A stretch of DNA of 64,000 nucleotides. It comes from Fimbriimonadales bacterium (GTDB taxonomy: Bacteria > Armatimonadota > Fimbriimonadia > Fimbriimonadales > JABRVX01). Shown in pieces: positions 18,601 through 59,941 of the stretch (within the stretch, counting starts at the first letter, position 1; each line of letters starts with the position of its first letter). The notes below the pieces were generated by a model. That model was not told the DNA's origin. It did no database searches and saw nothing but the letters and a program-made list of their open reading frames with translations. Made by a program: the position numbers and the translations under genes. Where the stretch lies: contig BTVI01000006.1 in NCBI GenBank assembly GCA_045862955.1, positions 37,703 through 101,702 on the forward strand, given 5' to 3'.

Positions 18601-18885
18601 ACCGACGCCGTGAAGGCAGGCAGAAATGATCTCGAGGTGCGGGTGACCAACCTGTGGGTGAACCGACTGATCGGGGACGAGCAGCTACCCGACGACATCG
18701 GTTGGCAGGGCGTGACATTCAGCTCGTGGCCGGAATGGCTGGTCGAGGGCACACCTCGCCCCGAGCCGCGGCGCAAGACCTTCACTACCTGGCGCCACAA
18801 TCGCGCCGACACGCCGCTCATCCCTTCGGGCCTGATGGGACCGGTCGTGCTTCAGCCGGTCCGGGTGTATCGGCTTCCCGAATAG
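15610..18885 (+). CDS. GH106 alpha-L-rhamnosidase-like glycoside hydrolase
   Basis: RPHTWWHWIDGNVTKEGITADLEAM, GWSSSGGPWV, LIDSYE, VGAEALT, VTNLWVNRLIGD, PSGLMGPV. Start uncertain (alternative 15634). Confidence 0.9.
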   Translation: MHGLGRLAMIAPILVTFAEAHGGGQIQDPSGSTARAHIGDQLQDEFASPPGWARPHTWWHWIDGNVTKEGITADLEAMKRAGLGGAHIFNAGSFGGHDSKGNYVTMPKGPIAYNTPEWRALMVHAMREAKRLGLEITIHNCAGWSSSGGPWVQPEDAMKKVVWSTVVVIGPSQVDATLPQPPTVRDEYHDIAVFALPETQVPAQPDEHHAYLTSLGDNDGKPFGDLAWPVVPRKDIIDLTEHVSDGRLKWAAPAGRWTILRIGWTLTGAQNVASSDSGRGLEVDKLSQESFDRYFDGSLLPLIEEAGPLAGDTFTTVLIDSYETGRQNWTQNMLAEFRKRRGYELLSWLPALCGIALDDADTTQRFLFDFRRTVAEMWSEYYSGRFAERLKQHGMQLAVEPYGNGPFNAFTYAEPAGLIMGEYWVGEGVINSSVKLSSSIAHVLGRKVVGAEALTATPDRAGWSNHPYQWKPFADRGYINGINRIIYHRFTHQPWPSGVLPGMTMGPWGSHVDRTQTWWHLAPSWHDYLSRCQYLLQSGQFVADVCVCTGEDEPQAYQEEIHGLAQVPEGYDFDYCTASMLMGATVSGGRIVLPGGMSYRLLALPNTDRMSWQFAAKVRELVAAGATIVGIPPSQTTGLSDPSPENTHIMGLLNGTVADALRELKLPPDFRSERGGVRAIHRRIGDADAYFVTWYGRQAIETKCFFRIEGRLPELWHPESGLVEKAVMFQPVPGGVEVLLRLGPAGSVFVVFRTEGQMRDPIVRVEAGVAEAPVESAVKIIKAEYGVIGDMWRSRDVTDRVAEAIAAFGEVEATNASMGGDPAVNIVKQLRVTYTDGGKERVVTIPEGETLRLGTARAVPSATWEMREEKGARYLHVWQTGSYRVVHDSGASTAIDAEVARSVELSGPWEVRFPSGWDAPETTTFSDLVSWTDHPEFGIKYFSGTATYRRQFDVDAALLGEGKRLVLDLGTVREIAEVLVNGKNLGALWWPPFRLDVTDAVKAGRNDLEVRVTNLWVNRLIGDEQLPDDIGWQGVTFSSWPEWLVEGTPRPEPRRKTFTTWRHNRADTPLIPSGLMGPVVLQPVRVYRLPE

Positions 18886-19154
18886 CTTGGGCTGCTCGTG
18901 GCACTGCACCATGCCCCGTACGCGACGCAGCCGAGTCGGGTGCGGGCCGGTGAGGCGGTCTCCGGGAAGGAGCCCAAGCAGGATCGCGTTGACAGAGGGC
19001 GAATCTTCGGTTATTATGCTAGTGAGCGCCCGCGCTACGAACGCCGCCTGCAGACGGGATCGGCGGAAAAGAACTGCTGCCGAATAGCCCAGTCGGCCAA
19101 GATCGCACCCTGGGCCGAGTCTATTGGTACTAGAGGGGGTGCAGGGACAGCAGA

Positions 19155-20279
19155 GTGGAGGCAGCGGCCCTGTGGAAGCGCGGAGTCGACTCGCTGATTG
19201 GCGTGAACCCGGTGGGATCGGCTTGGATACGAGAGCGAATCGCCTCGCTTGTTTCGGTCCCGCGTGTTGCGCTCGACGGAGAAGGGTCTTGGCAGGCGCT
19301 TCGTCAAGCCGTTAGCAGGCGGGTGGCCGCGCACTCGCATGCAAGGTACTTGTCTTCCGAGGACCTCGACGATATCGTAGGCGAGGTGCTCGCTCGGGCC
19401 GCCCCGGCTCTCATGGGAAGAGACGATCCCGTGAGGAACCCGAGTGCTTTCGTGAACCGCGTGATTGCCAACCAGTTCCATCAGTTTCTGCGGAAGAGCG
19501 GGCCAGCGTGGACTGGGCTCAAAGACGAGATCGTGGATATCGCTCGCGGCAGGCGCGGAGAGCAAGGACTGGCCCTCTGGCACTGCGATGGCACCGCCCT
19601 CATCGGCTTGAGTGGCTGGCGCCACCGCAACATCGAGCCCACCGATGCTTACATCGACTCTTTGGCGAGCACAGGGCGCTGGCACAGGGCCCCGGAGCGC
19701 CATGGGCTCGACCCCCATCTCGCAACGGGAGCCTTGCTCAGGGCACTGCTCGGGTACCTGGGCACACCGGTTCCGATTTCACACCTCGTCAACTTGGTTT
19801 TCGAGCTTCGCGGAACCCAGGAGCTGCGACGCATATCGCTCGATGAGTTGGCAGTTAGCAGAGAAGAACCCGCCGATCCAGGTGACCCTTGTCATGACGC
19901 GGAAACGCGCCAGACAGTGCAGGAAATCGCCCTGGCTTGTGAAGCCCTCGATGACGATCGTCTCGCAGCTTTCGTTTTCCGCCTCGAGGGCGAGACGGCG
20001 TCATGTCTGTTGGGCTTGGCAAGGCCTGCGTTGGTGGCGCGCATCCAGAGCCTCTTTGCGTTGGCCTTTCCACCAGACGGTAAGAACGCGTTGCAGCAGC
20101 TACCACTCTGTGACAAACACACTGCTAGGATCATTGGAGTGCGTGCAACGGGAACACGAGACGCCCAGCTATGGATTTCCAATCTTCGGCGATCCGCACA
20201 GCGAAGGATCTCTCGAGAGGTACTCGGCAGTGCGGCGCGCATGAAAAGAGAGCGGCAGCAGGAGGTGCCCGGTGAGTAA
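19155..20279 (+). CDS. atypical sigma70/ECF-like sigma factor with large insertion
   Basis: Region-2-like EDLDDIVGEVL...AFVNRVIANQFHQFLRK; region-4-like LPLCDKHTARIIG...ISNLRRSAQRRI; overlaps a zf-HC2 anti-sigma gene. Start uncertain. Confidence 0.65.
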   Translation: MEAAALWKRGVDSLIGVNPVGSAWIRERIASLVSVPRVALDGEGSWQALRQAVSRRVAAHSHARYLSSEDLDDIVGEVLARAAPALMGRDDPVRNPSAFVNRVIANQFHQFLRKSGPAWTGLKDEIVDIARGRRGEQGLALWHCDGTALIGLSGWRHRNIEPTDAYIDSLASTGRWHRAPERHGLDPHLATGALLRALLGYLGTPVPISHLVNLVFELRGTQELRRISLDELAVSREEPADPGDPCHDAETRQTVQEIALACEALDDDRLAAFVFRLEGETASCLLGLARPALVARIQSLFALAFPPDGKNALQQLPLCDKHTARIIGVRATGTRDAQLWISNLRRSAQRRISREVLGSAARMKRERQQEVPGE

Positions 20280-21378
20280 CGGCTGCCCATCGCTGAATGA
20301 CCTGATTCGCTGGCTTGCAGGAGAGACCTCGGGGCGAGAAGCCGACACTATGCGTACCCACGTGCATTCGTGTGCGTATTGTCGGCGACTGCTCTCGAAC
20401 GCAGCACCTGCCGGGCTCATCGCTCAGGTTGCCGCGTCCGAGCACATCGACTCCATCACCCTGTCCGAGTATGCCGATGGAGCCCTCAGCGGTGCGAGGC
20501 GACAGCTAGTGAAGTCGCACCTCGATCAATGCCTCGAGTGCGACACCCGTCTAACTCGACTGCTCGAAGGCCGCTCCGTGCCTCGAACGGCTCCGGCTTC
20601 GAACGTCGGCTGGCATCGCAATGCACCGACTGCTAGGATTCTCGTATGGTGGAGAGACTCCGCAGCAGTACTCGCTGTCGCCCTTGCCGTGGTAGGAGTA
20701 TGGTGGTTTCTGAATCGAGGCTATCTGCTGGGCACAGATGGAGTTGTCGCAGTCCACCTACCGCTCGAGCTACTACGCGAGCTGCCCGCTGACAAGAGAG
20801 CAGTGATGGGTCAGTTGTGTGGAGATCTCGCTCGCACGACACCCGTCGTAGGGTCGAGTCAGGACGTCCGATACCGTGGCGCCGACCCCAATCCTGCACC
20901 GCCTCGGATCCAGATCATCTATCCCCTGCCTGGAGACAAGCTACCTACGCTCGACTTGATAGTACTCGTCCGGACCCCAGGTGATTCGGCTGCTACGGTA
21001 GAGGCAGTCGAGAAGGCAACCGGGGCAACAGTGGGTCGTTGGACCGTTCCTTCTGGCCAACCTACCCGTCTGCCTGAGAAGTTGGCCTACGGGCACACAT
21101 ACTCCATCGTCGCACACGTGGTAAACGACCCGTCGTTGCGTTCGGAGGATCGGCTCTTCAGTACCGCAACCGAATCACTGGCTGAACACGTTCAGCGTCT
21201 CTCCGAGCGATGCCACGGTGACATCCTACTTCTGGGAGCACTCTACGAGACGTATGGTATGTATGGTGCCGCGGATCGCTACTATGCCGCTGCCGCCGAT
21301 GTGTCGGATGCTAACACCCGAGGCACGGACGTATACCAGGCCTGGCGACTTCGCTCGGGATTGGAGGGGTCGCGCTGA
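20272..21378 (+). CDS. membrane anti-sigma factor with two zf-HC2 zinc fingers
   Basis: HVHSCAYC and HLDQCLEC (HxxxCxxC twice); TM helix AVLAVALAVVGVWWFL; extracytoplasmic C-terminal domain. Confidence 0.8.
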   Translation: MSNGCPSLNDLIRWLAGETSGREADTMRTHVHSCAYCRRLLSNAAPAGLIAQVAASEHIDSITLSEYADGALSGARRQLVKSHLDQCLECDTRLTRLLEGRSVPRTAPASNVGWHRNAPTARILVWWRDSAAVLAVALAVVGVWWFLNRGYLLGTDGVVAVHLPLELLRELPADKRAVMGQLCGDLARTTPVVGSSQDVRYRGADPNPAPPRIQIIYPLPGDKLPTLDLIVLVRTPGDSAATVEAVEKATGATVGRWTVPSGQPTRLPEKLAYGHTYSIVAHVVNDPSLRSEDRLFSTATESLAEHVQRLSERCHGDILLLGALYETYGMYGAADRYYAAAADVSDANTRGTDVYQAWRLRSGLEGSR

Positions 21379-21392
21379 GGGGCGGTGATGCG

Positions 21393-24131
21393 ATGCTCCG
21401 CAAGGCCTCAATCGTACTCGTGCTGTTGGTGGTAGGAAGTAGCATCACGGCGCCGGAGCAGCAACGGTCGAAGGAGACTGTTTCAACGGATCGGCTCGTG
21501 GCCCATGCTCGCACGCTGATCGCGCACGAGTCGGGCGAACCTGCGCCCTATCTGCTGCAGGCGCTCCAGACCCGCTCGGCACGAGGTGACCTCGAGGGTG
21601 TGGACGAGGTGCTTCGCTTGCTCGCCGACCACGCACGTGACGCGGGCGATGCCTGCCAGTGGGGCGAGCGGATTGTCCAGCTGGACCGGCAACGGGGGGT
21701 GGCAGACATCGTCCTGGCTCGCGACTTATTGGACCTCGCCAGGCAGTATCGATACGCTGGCAGACGGGCGGATGCTGCAGAGTGTCTCGACAATGCCGAG
21801 CGGATAGCTCGCAGTCGAGGAGACCTCGGCCTCTCGGCCGGCATTCTCGCGCAGCGCGCAAACATAGCTGGCGACGAAGGCAGGTTCATGGACGCCGGCA
21901 TCCTGCTCGAGGCCGCCCTAGAACTCTTCGAGCAGGCAGGAACGCCGACACGCGAGCATGCCGAAGTCCTGGCCGAGCTTGGGCAGTTGCAGGCGGACTC
22001 GGGACAGCTGCTCGAGGCATGGCAATCGTTCAGTCGCGCCGAGCAGATAAGTTCTCAGTGCTTGCCCGCCTGCAAGCAGTTCTGGCAGTGGAAGAAGGTC
22101 AATGACGCCGCCCTGTTAGCAAGCGTGGGCAGGGCGCAGATCCTTGCTGCCTTTGGACGGTTCGAGGACGCCATCCAAGAGGCCAAGTACGCTCGGGTCC
22201 TCGCACTTCGGTCGAGCCTGGGTGATCGAAGGTACATGATCTCGGCGGAGATGGCTGAGTGGGCGGCAAGAATCGGGAGGCCCGACCTGGCAGAGAGGTG
22301 GTACGAACTGGCGCTGCGCGTCGGCGATCCCCACGCCAAGAATCGCGTTCGCTTAGCATACGCAGGCTACCTCATAGAAACCGGTAGGGAGTCCGAAGCC
22401 CGCTTGCTGCTAGGTGAAATCCCATCTGACACCACGCCAAAGCAGCGTGTCGAGAGCTTGCTGCTCATGGGTCGAGCGGATCTCCTGCGAGGCGAAAGTC
22501 GGGCTGCAGCTGACCGGTTTCGAAACGCGGCGCGCCTTGCACGACAATTGGCGCCCGTACCAGCACTTCTGTGGCAAGCGCATTCGGGGCTCGGTGAGGC
22601 GCTCCTAAGTGATGGTAGGACCAACGAGGGCATACTAGAACTACAGGCCGCAGTGCAGGTGGTGCGCGACTGGGCAGGGGGTGTTCTCGATCCGGCGCTC
22701 GCTTACCAGGATGGACCGAAGTCCCCCTGGCACGCCTATGGTCTGTTGATAGCTACCCACGTGCGGCAGAATCGCACTCTGCAAGCCCTCGGCCTGTCCG
22801 AGGAGATGAAGGCAATCGCAACGATTGCTGACCGCGCCGAGGAGGGTGTGCAAGAGCCGGTAGCCGAGCATCTCAGTGGCCGGGTGTCTGACATCCGAAT
22901 TGCCATTGCCAGCGCAAGACGTGCGCTGCACGAGAACACGCTGCGGGACCCAATTGCCCGTTCTCGTGCCACCGCTGAGCTGCAGCTCTTGGACAACGAA
23001 CTCCTCCGCCTGATTGCGCAGCATAACCGTCCACTCCCGAGCAGTGATAGGTCCGAGGCGCTAGTTAGTGCGGCGCGAAAGATCGCGCAGGACCGAGCCT
23101 GTGCGTTCGTAAGTTTCTCCTTGAGCGCGAACCACGGGATCGCCTTCGTGATCACTGGGCACGGCCTCGAGACGAAGCAACTGAACCTATCGCAAGACCA
23201 GCTCCGCTCACTCGTGGGCCTCATGCGTATCTACCGAGAGTCACCGGACCACGCATGGAAATCCGATGCGGCTCCTCGTCTTCTTCGCGATCTGCGTACC
23301 GCCCTGATCGGGCCCATCGAGCCCGAACTGCGAGGTGTCAAGAGGCTAGTCATCATCCCCGACGGCGTGCTTTGGACGCTGCCGTTCGAGATGCTCTGGC
23401 AGCGGGATGGCAATCGAGTGCAGTACCTCATCGAGGAGTACGCCATCTCCTACGCTCCCTCGGTCCGAGCGGCTGTAGAGTGGGCCTCGCGCGCTAGAAT
23501 GGCGCGCCGGGCAGCGCCGCGCGATGTCCGCGTGGTCGCGAACGGAGTAGCTAGCAACGAGTCGAGCCGCGAACTCAGTCCTCGCCGAGTGTCTGTCGCG
23601 GCGAACGATGCGGAGATCGTGCGTCGGGCACTGGGAAGCCGTGTGAGCGTATTCGAAGGCAGTGCAGCAACCAAGTCCGCCTTGATGAGAGCACTCGGAG
23701 AGGCGGACGTGTTACATGTAGCAGCTCACGCGACCTATGCGGAGGACTATCCGCCTGCCTCCTACATCTCGCTTGCGCAAGAGCTCGGAGCTTCGTCCTC
23801 GGGCCTTCTTCGAGGGTGGGAGATCTCCGAAGCGAGGTGTCGTGCGGGCTTGGTGTTTCTGGCAGCATGCGACACGGGTAGGACGTCCTCGCTCCGTGGA
23901 CGCGGCTTGCTGGGTCTGACCGGTGCCGTAATGGCGGCGGGCGCCAACGCTTGCATCGGGTCGCGGTGGGCAGATCGCGATGCCGCGACGGAATCGTATA
24001 TAGCCCAATTCTATCAGCGCTACGCAAAGAGCCGGGATGCTTCGGACGCGGCGCAGAAGGCAGCCTGCAACCTCATCGCGGCGGGGGCGCCACCGTACGA
24101 CTGGGCGGCATTCATGGTGCTGGGATGGTGA
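21393..24131 (+). CDS. TPR-CHAT (caspase-like) protease with signal peptide
   Basis: Hydrophobic N-terminus; TPR-like helices; CHAT motifs LVIIPDGVLWTLPFEML, YLIEEYAISYAPS, VLHVAAHA (His), FLAACDTG (Cys), PYDWAAFMVLG. Confidence 0.9.
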   Translation: MLRKASIVLVLLVVGSSITAPEQQRSKETVSTDRLVAHARTLIAHESGEPAPYLLQALQTRSARGDLEGVDEVLRLLADHARDAGDACQWGERIVQLDRQRGVADIVLARDLLDLARQYRYAGRRADAAECLDNAERIARSRGDLGLSAGILAQRANIAGDEGRFMDAGILLEAALELFEQAGTPTREHAEVLAELGQLQADSGQLLEAWQSFSRAEQISSQCLPACKQFWQWKKVNDAALLASVGRAQILAAFGRFEDAIQEAKYARVLALRSSLGDRRYMISAEMAEWAARIGRPDLAERWYELALRVGDPHAKNRVRLAYAGYLIETGRESEARLLLGEIPSDTTPKQRVESLLLMGRADLLRGESRAAADRFRNAARLARQLAPVPALLWQAHSGLGEALLSDGRTNEGILELQAAVQVVRDWAGGVLDPALAYQDGPKSPWHAYGLLIATHVRQNRTLQALGLSEEMKAIATIADRAEEGVQEPVAEHLSGRVSDIRIAIASARRALHENTLRDPIARSRATAELQLLDNELLRLIAQHNRPLPSSDRSEALVSAARKIAQDRACAFVSFSLSANHGIAFVITGHGLETKQLNLSQDQLRSLVGLMRIYRESPDHAWKSDAAPRLLRDLRTALIGPIEPELRGVKRLVIIPDGVLWTLPFEMLWQRDGNRVQYLIEEYAISYAPSVRAAVEWASRARMARRAAPRDVRVVANGVASNESSRELSPRRVSVAANDAEIVRRALGSRVSVFEGSAATKSALMRALGEADVLHVAAHATYAEDYPPASYISLAQELGASSSGLLRGWEISEARCRAGLVFLAACDTGRTSSLRGRGLLGLTGAVMAAGANACIGSRWADRDAATESYIAQFYQRYAKSRDASDAAQKAACNLIAAGAPPYDWAAFMVLGW

Positions 24132-25288
24132 GCCGCACTGGTCCACTGCTACGATGCCTACTACTGGGGTGCCTGTTAGGATTGTTAGGTATCGTGGTCC
24201 TGGCGTGGCTCGAGCGCTCACGAGTAGCTGCCCCCAGGGAACGCATTGCCGAGATGGGTGGGAACACGCACTCCCCCCCGGTTCCTCCCCTACGATTCGC
24301 TACCAGGCATCACACCTTTGTCGAGGTCTTGGCTGGTGAGGACGTGCGTCCCTGCGGTCTGGTGCCTATTATTGGTCAGGCGTCCGCGATAGCACTCGAT
24401 TCCGACGGCGGCAGGCTAATCGCGACGCTAGATGACCAGCATACGATAGTAGCATTCGATACGCAGACGCTGATGCCGATAACCACCTGGTGTCTCGACG
24501 GGAGAGGGCTTCCCTGCTCCGACCTGGTCTACTGCGCGACCCGAAAGGCGCTGCTCGCCTCCGACCCCGGCACCACCGCACTCGTGCCTCTGCCCGACCA
24601 AGGCGGTCTAGTGAAGGCCGTGCACCTGCCCGAGGTACCCGAGCGGTGGCCTGCCGTCACGGACGCTACAGGGTCGCGAATCTTTCGGTCGGTTGTTCCG
24701 AACGGAACGTTGCAGGAAGCCGTCGAGGCCTATGAGCCGAAGAGTGCAACGCCTTCGGGTGTTGTGGCGCAAGTCGGCGGGCGGCCCGGCTGCGATGGCG
24801 ACCTCCTGTACCTAGCACACCCGCGTCGGCACGAGGTGTCGCTAATCGCACTGCGGACCGGACGTGTGCTCGCCCGCCGCAGCTTCAGCCAGGGCGAGCG
24901 GCCGTGGCACGAGTTCCCTGCTAACGTGCTTGCCGACCCCGTCGCTGAACGCGTCTACCTGCCGATGCAGGATCACTCCGATGCCATCCTAGCTCTAGAC
25001 GGGAAGACATTGAAGACGGTGTGGTCGGCCGAGGTCGGGCGACGGCCCACGCGCATCGCCCTCGACTCCGTTCGCCGCAGGCTGTACGTGACGCACCTCT
25101 TCGACTACCGTCTGTTCGTGCTGGACGCCGATACGGGCAGGGTCGTGTCGGTGCTGGAATACGACGACCTTCCACTCACCGTCCTGCCCGACCCTCGCAC
25201 CGGCCGGGTGTTCGTCCAGTTCGCCGGGATGATCTCGGTTCTAGAGGAAGCCACGTCGGCCACAGTTAGCCAGAGCACACGCCGCTAG
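24125..25288 (+). CDS. membrane-anchored YncE/YVTN-like beta-propeller protein
   Basis: N-terminal TM; blades LADPVAERVYL, VGRRPTRIALDSVRRRLYVT, LPDPRTGRVFV; start overlaps the CHAT stop. Confidence 0.7.
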   Translation: MVSRTGPLLRCLLLGCLLGLLGIVVLAWLERSRVAAPRERIAEMGGNTHSPPVPPLRFATRHHTFVEVLAGEDVRPCGLVPIIGQASAIALDSDGGRLIATLDDQHTIVAFDTQTLMPITTWCLDGRGLPCSDLVYCATRKALLASDPGTTALVPLPDQGGLVKAVHLPEVPERWPAVTDATGSRIFRSVVPNGTLQEAVEAYEPKSATPSGVVAQVGGRPGCDGDLLYLAHPRRHEVSLIALRTGRVLARRSFSQGERPWHEFPANVLADPVAERVYLPMQDHSDAILALDGKTLKTVWSAEVGRRPTRIALDSVRRRLYVTHLFDYRLFVLDADTGRVVSVLEYDDLPLTVLPDPRTGRVFVQFAGMISVLEEATSATVSQSTRR

Positions 25289-25420
25289 GGGACGCCAGTG
25301 CCGTATCGCGGCATCAGAGTATCATTTGCTTTTGCAGCGGCGGCAATGGTCTAGAAAGGCGCCACTCGGGATCGCTGCAGGCTTTGCGGGCAGGTGGAAC
25401 GACAGGGAGAGCGGAGGGAC

Positions 25421-27121
25421 ATGGAAGAGAGCATCCGAGGGACGAGGGGAGAAGCAGGAACCGACTTCATCCGGGAGGCCATTCGGCAGGACCTGAAGGA
25501 AGGGCGGTTCGACCGCGTGCATACGCGCTTCCCGCCCGAGCCCAACGCATACCTACACATAGGCCATGCCAAGGCCGTCTGGATTGACTATGGCATCGCG
25601 CTGGAGTTCGGCGGCCTGTTCAACCTGCGGTTCGACGACACGAACCCGGTGAAGGAAGAACAGGAGTTCGTGGACGCCATCATCGAGGACGTCCGCTGGC
25701 TGGGCGCGGACTGGGGCGACAGGCTCTTCTTCGCCTCGGACTACTTCGATCAAATGTATGTTTGGGCCTTAGACTTGATCAAAATGGGCAAGGCGTACGT
25801 ATGCGACCTTTCGCCCGAGGAGGTGAGCGCGACCCGCGGCACACTCACGACACCCGGCACGGAGAGCCCCTACCGCAACCGGAGCGTGGAGGAGAACCTG
25901 GACCTCTTCCAGCGCATGAAGGCCGGCGAGTTCCCGAACGGTGCAAGAACCCTGCGCGCTAAGATTGACATGGCCCACCCTAACCTGCTGATGCGAGACC
26001 CGGTGATGTACCGCATCCTGCACGCGGAGCACCATCGGCAGGGCAACAAGTGGTGTATCTATCCGATGTACGACTGGGCGCACGGGTTGGAGGACTCGAT
26101 CGAGGGCATCACGCACTCCCTCTGCTCGCTGGAGTATGAGATTCACCGCCCTCTGTACGACTGGTTCCTGGACCAGCTCGGCATCTATCACCCGCGGCAG
26201 ATAGAGTTCGCGCGCTTGAACCTCAGCTACACGGTGATGAGCAAGCGCCGTTTCATCGAGCTGGTGAACGGCGGCTACGTGAGCGGTTATGACGACCCGC
26301 GGCTGCCAACCCTGGCCGGGCTGCGGCGCCGCGGCTACACTCCCGAGGCAATCCGCGAGTTTTGCCGTCGCATCGGGGTGGCCAAGACCGACAGCGTGGT
26401 GGACGTGGCAGTGTTGGAGGACTGCATTCGCGAAGACCTGAACAAGCATGCGCCGCGCGTGATGGCAGTGTTGAAGCCGCTGAAGGTGGTGCTGACCAAC
26501 TACCCCCAAGGGCAGACGGAAGAGCTAGACGTAGTGAACAACCCAGAGGACCCCGCGGCGGGTACGCGCAAGGTGCCGTTTGGACGCGTGCTCTTTATCG
26601 AGCAGGACGACTTTCGGGAAGTCCCACCCCCCAAGTTCTACCGCCTTGCACCGGGACGAGAGGTGCGGCTACGCAACGCCTATCTGATAACCTGTGTGGA
26701 TGTGGTGAAGGATGCCGAAGGGAACGTGGCGGAACTGCATTGCACCTACGATCCGGCCACGCGGGGTGGTGATGCACCCGATGGGCGAAAGGTCAAGGCG
26801 ACGCTGCACTGGGTCTCGGCCGAACACGCTGTCGAGGCAGAGGTGCGCTTGTACGATCACCTATTCCGCAAGCCGAATCCCGACGACGTGGAAGAGGGGC
26901 AGACCTACTTAGACAATCTCAACCCCGACTCGCTGACAGTGACTAGCTGCCTCATCGAGCCCAGCGTGGTAGGTGCTGCCGTGGGGTCTCGCTATCAGTT
27001 CGAGCGCGTCGGCTATTTTTGTGTGGACCGAGACTCCACACCCGAGCGTCTCGTCTTCAACCGCACTGCCACCCTACGGGACACCTGGGCGAAGATCGAG
27101 AAGGCCACCTTGGGGAGATAG
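25421..27121 (+). CDS. glnS: glutamine--tRNA ligase
   Basis: [49 protein letters not shown]. Confidence 0.97.
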
Positions 27122-59454: not shown

Positions 59455-59485
59455 GGTCAATGAGAGCGCGCGGCCGGCGGGAACC

Positions 59486-59941
59486 GTCATGCTGAGCCTG
59501 TCGAAGCATGCATCGGTCGGTGGGAGCGTGCTACCGTACGCGACCGTCATGCTGAGCCTGTCGAAGCATGCATCGGTCGGTGGGAGCGCACAGCCGGCGG
59601 GAACCGTCATGCTGAGCCTGTCGAAGCATGCGTCGCTCGGTGGGAGTGCGCAGCCGACGGGAACCGTCATGCTGAGCCTGTCGAAGCATGCATCGGTGAG
59701 TGCCAGAGCCACCTGCTGAAGTCGAGAACGTGCGGCCGGTGGGGTCATGCTTCGACAGGCTCAGCATGACGATAGGCTCAGCATGACGACGAGCTCGGCA
59801 TAGAGGCAGGCTCGGTGCGGCCGGCGGGGTCATGCTTCGACAGGCTCAGCATGACGATAGGCTCAGCATGACGACGAGCTCGGCATGACGACAGGCTCAG
59901 CATGACGACAAGGCCAGCATGACGGCGGGGTAGGCATGACG
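59486..59941. repeat. REP array (family A)
   Basis: Four direct GTCATGCTGAGCCTGTCGAAGCATG copies at 60-bp period (59486, 59546, 59606, 59666); inverted copies at 59746 and 59831; then decaying GGCTCAGCATGAC subrepeats. Confidence 0.9.

Follow-up and report, generated by a model that had tools for sequence, protein, structure and literature searches.

Two-step cutting of a single-pass anti-sigma factor frees extracytoplasmic function (ECF) sigma factors in the RseA/DegS/RseP and RsiW systems. Here we describe a gene cluster – encoding an enlarged sigma factor, a membrane anti-sigma candidate, a TPR-CHAT protease and a beta-propeller – found within a 64,000-nucleotide stretch of the Fimbriimonadales bacterium contig BTVI01000006.1 (the window). 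Its nearest counterpart is DdvS/DdvA of Myxococcus xanthus. DdvA is a zinc anti-sigma factor fused to a periplasmic TPR-CHAT region, with CHAT proposed as the site-1 protease; a cryo-electron microscopy structure is given (PDB 8ROT), processing of truncated DdvA by RseP is shown, fused DdvA-like proteins are reported only in Myxococcota and one Comamonas species, and only some DdvA-like pairs lie near defence genes (PMC11506125). The type III-E craspase Cas7-11/Csx29 cleaves Csx30, releasing CASP-sigma (PMC10028731). ECF54 is described as restricted to actinobacteria: a separate TPR-CHAT gene adjoins its sigma gene, subtilases are often present as well, and no putative anti-sigma is given (PMC7826278). 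A prior sequence-only reading of this stretch knew of no experimental description of the arrangement; precedents nevertheless exist in DdvS/DdvA, which is the fused equivalent (PMC11506125), and in the ECF54 sigma genes noted beside TPR-CHAT genes (PMC7826278).

Sigma factor, anti-sigma and TPR-CHAT protease form a conserved three-gene module in many uncultured bacteria. DdvA is the best PDB match for the profiles of both partner proteins, anti-sigma and CHAT, and we therefore regard the module as a split variant of DdvA/DdvS. With moderate confidence, we consider it probable that the module is an envelope-to-transcription switch of this type, in which a separate TPR-CHAT protein, predicted to be exported, would make the first cut in the anti-sigma.

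The locus and its proteins

The four open reading frames (ORFs), all on the + strand, sit between a GH106 rhamnosidase gene and glnS. Their junctions are, in gene order, an 8-nt overlap, a 14-nt gap and a 7-nt overlap; the ORF calls agree with the sequence-only reading, which had described four coupled genes joined in this way. The features are:

19155..20279, + strand: enlarged ECF-like sigma factor, 374 aa (Pfam, family profile, AlphaFold model)
19695..19823 (approximate limits), + strand: delta-like part of the sigma insert (family profile against PDB 2krc)
20272..21378, + strand: membrane anti-sigma candidate, 368 aa (Pfam, motif, hydropathy)
20359..20382, + strand: zinc finger 1, His30-Cys34-Cys37 (at least 90% conserved in the anti-sigma alignment)
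20518..20541, + strand: zinc finger 2, His83-Cys87-Cys90 (invariant in 74/74 aligned anti-sigmas)
20872..20880, + strand: linker motif Tyr201-Arg202-Gly203 (family pattern hydrophobic-[Met/Leu/Arg]-[Gly/Ser])
21393..24131, + strand: TPR-CHAT protease, clan CD, separase/craspase-type, 912 aa, signal-like N-terminus (Pfam, model)
23727..23729, + strand: catalytic His779 (intact in 105/106 paired CHATs)
23868..23870, + strand: catalytic Cys826 (intact in 105/106 paired CHATs)
24125..25288, + strand: membrane-anchored YncE-like beta-propeller, 387 aa (NCBIfam, hydropathy)

A genome of the same genus (G001) carries the same six genes in the same order, GH106 and glnS flanks included; identities are 58, 57, 70 and 72% for genes 1 to 4 and 85% and 94% for the two flanks, and its sigma gene has an ATG at the same start position. 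A minus-strand ORF over the sigma gene (19035-19718) gave no Pfam match. At one locus from the same order (L020, genome G340) a trio of sigma, anti-sigma-like and CHAT genes also lies beside glnS, on its other side.

The product of gene 1 consists of sigma-2 (residues ~36-116), an insert of ~130 aa and sigma-4 (~246-362), the last interrupted by ~45 aa. Pfam recognizes Sigma70_r2 weakly (E 3.8e-5, just below the cut-off), and across the family it finds this domain in 55/114 members and Sigma70_r4_2 in 13/114. The family profile (114 rows) matches FliA and ECF sigma factors in the PDB (E 5e-6 to 4e-5). The AlphaFold model (pLDDT 84.8, pTM 0.63) aligns with ECF sigma-2 over residues 36-116 (Z 7.7, rmsd 2.3, 79 aligned) and with ECF sigma-4 over residues 249-361 (Z 7.2, rmsd 2.2, 69 aligned), these Z values of 7.2-7.7 all lying under the caution line of 8; since only 69 residues align across 249-361, sigma-4 would contain an insertion of ~45 residues. 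The top 12 rows of the structure comparison are all sigma factors, and a Foldseek search with the model gave no match at E<=0.001. The sigma fold is thus supported by the agreement of profile and structure, which upholds the earlier description of gene 1 as an enlarged sigma70-like gene.

Canonical ECF sigma factors (group 4) are compact, with a short linker between sigma-2 and sigma-4, whereas here there is the large insert and a split sigma-4: the protein is ECF-like rather than canonical ECF. In its second half the insert is similar to the N-terminal helices of the delta subunit of RNA polymerase (2krc, E 6.6e-5, 42 positions); a search with the first half gave no significant PDB match, so that a circularly permuted delta/HARE-HTH domain gained no support from it and is no more than a possible reading. 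No Pfam family recurs in the insert. A phmmer search with the sigma factor returned 126 representatives at E<=0.001, mostly of 300-400 aa; look-alikes in the Atlas are mainly from Acidobacteriota, and single-sequence searches yielded only 3 close proteins and no loci.

The anti-sigma candidate starts with two zinc fingers; a transmembrane helix and a variable linker follow, after which come an Ig/FN3-like domain and, at the C-terminus, a TPR-like hairpin. Pfam zf-HC2 matches twice (E 1.7e-11), with HxxxCxxC at residues 30 and 83, and there is one hydrophobic segment, within residues 123-150; two fingers are present in 127/142 family anti-sigmas. The best PDB match of the family profile is to DdvA residues 7-112 (E 2.7e-7), TPR and FN3 matches being weaker. 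In the Atlas the outer domain finds DUF928/TPR clusters (TM-score 0.75-0.76) and an MtxA-like cluster (TM-score 0.68).

Gene 3 belongs to the CHAT family (PF12770, clan CD) by domain, dyad and fold, and is predicted to be proteolytically active. Pfam places CHAT at residues 629-911 (E 2.7e-56), together with TPRs, and the sole exception to the intact His-Cys dyad among the paired CHATs is a broken gene. The model (pLDDT 84.9, pTM 0.84) has Csx29 (E 3e-13), DdvA (1e-12) and separase as its top Foldseek matches; the best PDB match of the CHAT profile is DdvA 830-974 (E 2.7e-12), and phmmer with the CHAT domain alone found nothing in the PDB. Residues 1-20 form a hydrophobic N-terminus, and an uncharged hydrophobic stretch occurs in the first 90 residues of 95/108 family CHATs, compared with 8/108 in an internal control segment. 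CHAT is therefore likely to be on the same side of the membrane as the anti-sigma outer domain: its export is predicted. No second CHAT match was found in the genome, and a PADLOC match of the domain to BovA is weak (E 4e-6) and was not accepted as system membership. The sequence-only reading of genes 2 and 3 – two HxxxCxxC fingers, a transmembrane helix and an outer domain in the one, TPR-CHAT with a signal-like N-terminus and intact dyad in the other – is matched by Pfam, motif and hydropathy for the former, and by features both present here and conserved family-wide for the latter.

Co-occurrence of sigma, anti-sigma and CHAT

Loci were collected with the sigma profile, which matched 78/401 own-phylum genomes (E<=1e-10, own genome included) and 25/401 genomes from the phylum of a Terriglobales record, G425 (E<=1e-25). 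A pattern scan gave 411 places, 397 of them confirmed, and the best 80 of the 397 (mostly Acidobacteriota) were used. Also taken were 74/92 other own-phylum places, 33/35 from the G425 phylum and 9 paralogues; most of the omitted places were incomplete, lay on short contigs or were in the set already, and removal of two duplicates gave 194 loci. A full-flank subset of 132/194 has at least 4.5 kb upstream and at least 6 kb downstream of the sigma gene. Counts of loci are uncorrected for kinship.

In the full-flank loci a zinc-finger gene lies directly downstream of sigma in 116/132, the Ig+TPR outer domain is present in 99/132, and CHAT is found within 9 kb in 90/132. The gene-neighbourhood check proposed in the sequence-only reading thus finds the three genes together. 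CHAT is nearby in 85/99 loci where the anti-sigma has the Ig+TPR outer domain vs 5/33 where it does not, figures obtained with a hidden Markov model (HMM) of the outer domain that was built from CHAT-linked loci; an earlier HMM, made partly from CHAT-less loci, gave 62/74 vs 4/20. Association with CHAT is looser in the own phylum (28/56) than in the set of named records (39/42). Four placements of CHAT occur among 113 loci: convergent (63), upstream (32), downstream (11) and upstream-opposite (7); the link between sigma and CHAT thus survives reshuffling. A fusion of fingers and CHAT was seen in none of the 194 loci, and the ORFs are separate in G001 also.

These neighbourhoods bear on whether CHAT might be an output of the switch. 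If an ordinary envelope switch were cut by a general protease, then TPR-CHAT could be an exported product acting on secreted or foreign proteins. CHAT is indeed often convergent (63/113) and hence separately transcribed, it is lacking at 42/132 sigma loci, and the flanks are varied, often with secreted hydrolases or propellers: the 89 flanking genes scanned (of 130 picked) include subtilases (3), S9 (2), M1 and M64 peptidases, unrelated propellers (5 other propeller-type proteins) and housekeeping genes. However, CHAT tracks one type of outer domain, as well as a motif in the anti-sigma linker (present in 91/115 anti-sigmas with CHAT nearby vs 5/14 without), and DdvA has both parts in one chain. 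We therefore think an output role unlikely, and favor CHAT as the enzyme that would make the first cut.

The propeller behaves differently from the other three genes. Its product has a hydrophobic segment (residues 5-32) and a weak YncE-like match (E 9.6e-7, far below the NCBIfam cut-off). A four-part version of the switch, in which the membrane propeller acts as sensor and turns CHAT on, could draw on the overlap with the CHAT stop, on conservation in G001 at 72% identity, and on YncE-like neighbours at L083, L080 and L162. But besides G001, homologues beside sigma are detectable in only 2/194 other loci – L083 (E 9e-9) and L080 (weak, E 9e-4) – and for this reason the propeller cannot be the family's sensor; we hold the four-part version to be very improbable. 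The propeller is a lineage-specific fourth gene outside the conserved core, its probable role being that of a local target or an accessory, not that of the sensor. Thus, of the propeller described in the sequence-only reading, the membrane-anchored gene is there, and its place as a core part is not.

The sequence-only reading had also taken the system to be independent of CRISPR, and as regards linkage this stands: RAMP genes and an intact cas1 occur in this genome on a separate contig (C9), not beside the module, to which no Cas7-11, Csx30 or CRISPR array is linked. No Cas or cyclase family was found at E<=1e-8 among the 89 neighbours scanned, nor among 93 own-phylum neighbours, and no CBASS family turned up among the module neighbours scanned. 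The C9 locus (G000:C9:42010-61972) is multi-gene and type III-like, with four RAMP matches in separate frames, cas1 and an array of ~41 copies. In the window, positions 59483-59725 hold four 60-nt units in tandem, based on a short palindrome with further copies elsewhere on the contig; they are REP-like, and were rejected as a CRISPR array.

Several loci depart from the common arrangement. At five (L012, L013, L014, L015, L017) the double-finger domain and a whole sodium:dicarboxylate symporter (PF00375, E 1e-70 to 1e-94) make up one fused protein; four of these loci have a second symporter gene following, and none has CHAT nearby. They are a candidate variant in which the transporter is the sensor. 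At L023:7495-9792 and L030:8988-11315 the gene immediately after the anti-sigma encodes a peptidase C14 (metacaspase-like), which is the only clan CD protease seen at L023. At L011:10932-11966 and L044:10983-11936 a Ser/Thr kinase after the enlarged sigma takes the place of the anti-sigma, which suggests control by phosphorylation. In L039, L040 and L047, CHAT comes first and the enlarged sigma second, and after them stands a short ECF sigma of the ordinary kind, accompanied by a single-finger anti-sigma; the ORF L134:7122-8726, upstream of a sigma homologue, matches the Tc toxin TcA C-terminal family PF18276. Genomes G424 and G422 carry multiple enlarged-sigma paralogues (7 matches in G424, 5 in G422); of those collected, most have their own anti-sigma and CHAT; paralogous modules in one genome would allow tests of specificity.

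A candidate cut site and a proposed mechanism

The linker motif stands between the transmembrane helix and the outer domain, shortly before the Ig domain, in 109/149 anti-sigmas, compared with 17% of shuffled linkers, for a pattern that was defined after the alignment had been viewed. Its commonest middle residue is Met or Leu (69/108). In clan CD substrates a small residue typically follows the cut. PMC11506125 gives Met or Leu as the residue behind which craspases cut, and Arg for separases. As clan CD, craspase and separase preferences all fit, Tyr201-Arg202-Gly203 is a plausible candidate for a CHAT cut or docking site.

The same residues might instead hold the protease in check. If CHAT and anti-sigma form a resting complex, with the linker as a securin-like pseudosubstrate, then a cue would free active protease and expose the anti-sigma to other proteases. 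The frequency of Met or Leu is in keeping with this: securin inhibits separase via a large hydrophobic residue at P1 (PMC10317155), and the middle residue lacks clean co-variation with any CHAT column. Nonetheless, craspases cutting after Met or Leu (PMC11506125, as above) means that a hydrophobic P1 can belong to a true substrate, and Arg versions, as in this locus, fit a substrate. We regard the resting complex as quite improbable, and the linker as more probably a site of cleavage by CHAT.

The proposed order of events is as follows. At rest the operon would be expressed from a housekeeping promoter, and the tandem zinc fingers, by analogy with other zinc-associated anti-sigma (ZAS) proteins and DdvA, would hold sigma at the membrane. 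Exported CHAT, as its signal-like N-terminus suggests, would be inactive until its TPRs bind a cue, and would then cut within the linker, most probably on the C-terminal side of Arg202, immediately ahead of the bulky Ig+TPR domain. RseP, as shown for truncated DdvA, could then cut the transmembrane helix, freeing sigma; a RseP homologue in this genome scores above the family cut-off.

A putative promoter for the first of these steps is present:

18989..19017, + strand: sigma-70-type promoter-like site, housekeeping type (11/12 consensus matches, 17-nt spacer)

It is the only such site found in 18800-25500, a number at chance level, since shuffles yield about one per region (1.2 +/- 1.2). Both hexamers are kept at the same place in G001, and the site would likely give standby expression of the operon. 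Between it and the sigma start, three short blocks (19074-19123) are conserved in G001; they are possibly a second, sigma-specific promoter or operator. The blocks recur 5-34 times in the genome, with one match on C9, far from the cas genes. A motif shared upstream of sigma genes did not rise clearly above shuffles (70 and 111 upstream regions).

Co-variation of the P1 residue and the protease pocket was considered as evidence of cleavage. Alignment spans suggest that CHAT residue 863 is about one turn before the separase Asp known to bind P1 Arg. For the middle linker residue against position 863, a first set gave 17 Arg+Asp, 5 Arg+other, 2 Met/Leu+Asp and 49 Met/Leu+other; in a larger set the numbers were 21, 17, 3 and 61, so that Asp863 pairs with Arg in 21/24, and Arg occurs without Asp863 in 17/38. 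Of 6 independent pairs on the tree, ~2 changed in the same direction, 0 in the opposite direction and 4 not at all (p 0.5). As the association was weaker in the larger set and lacked significance on the tree, it was set aside as evidence.

Besides the failed co-variation test, several further points weigh against a first cut by CHAT. Autoproteolysis of DdvA was never observed, and dyad mutants still repressed (PMC11506125). Within the full-flank subset, the flanks hold no CHAT at 14/99 loci whose anti-sigma has the Ig+TPR outer domain, and 42/132 sigma loci lack CHAT overall; some have other partners, namely a transporter joined to the fingers (5), a kinase (2) or peptidase C14 (2). The CHAT signal peptide was judged by hydropathy alone, and to this must be added the uncorrected kinship of the loci and the CHAT-linked origin of the outer-domain HMM. 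A complex prediction for CHAT 96-912 with anti-sigma 186-368 scored 0.00 in two runs, speaking neither for nor against. Cleavage of the anti-sigma by CHAT is thus something we infer, here as in DdvA. Only tentatively, and with somewhat less confidence than for the locus itself, do we extend it to a widespread family, in which an exported caspase/separase-like site-1 protease would cut a separate double-zinc anti-sigma at hydrophobic-[Arg/Met/Leu]-Gly, releasing a distinct class of sigma factors with an RNA-polymerase-delta-like domain.

Relation to described systems

The proposal for DdvA raises the question whether regulated intramembrane proteolysis can be started by a CHAT protease. A site-1 role is hard to show in a protein that is enzyme and substrate at once and for which no trigger is known; where nature has separated the two and left a candidate cut site, the question becomes directly testable with two soluble proteins. 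If true, bacterial caspase-like signalling would extend outside the cytoplasm and beyond CRISPR. The module also draws attention to sigma factors that form a family with an additional domain and that mostly escape Pfam. No description of the split trio or of the enlarged sigma was found in a literature search whose scope excluded most subscription journals and the DdvA supplement.

Compared with RseA and RsiW, the inferred site-1 enzyme here differs in being a clan CD cysteine protease dedicated to its substrate, the two genes being neighbours. ECF54 shares with this locus an ECF-type sigma gene adjoining a separate TPR-CHAT gene; unlike in ECF54, a transmembrane double-zinc anti-sigma is here the most constant partner (directly downstream in the 116/132 full-flank loci). 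Craspase resembles the proposed switch in that a TPR-CHAT protein acts in trans on a separate sigma inhibitor, and Csx29 is the top Foldseek match; it differs in being cytoplasmic and RNA-activated via Cas7-11, and Csx30 is not a membrane ZAS protein.

Likeness is greatest to DdvS/DdvA, where an ECF-type sigma is again paired with a ZAS anti-sigma with one transmembrane helix and an extracytoplasmic TPR-CHAT with a His-Cys dyad. The locus is nevertheless not a member of the DdvA group, since the defining fusion is absent, though it would be DdvS/DdvA-like in working. Unlike in DdvA, TPR-CHAT is a separate gene, and the anti-sigma, with two fingers, carries an Ig+TPR outer domain of its own; unlike DdvS, sigma factors of this family are mostly 300-400 aa long and contain inserts. 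The neighbours scanned here also included no CBASS or CRISPR family. Relative to DdvA/DdvS, then, what is new is the separate CHAT, the 374-aa sigma with its insert, the tandem fingers and the conserved linker motif.

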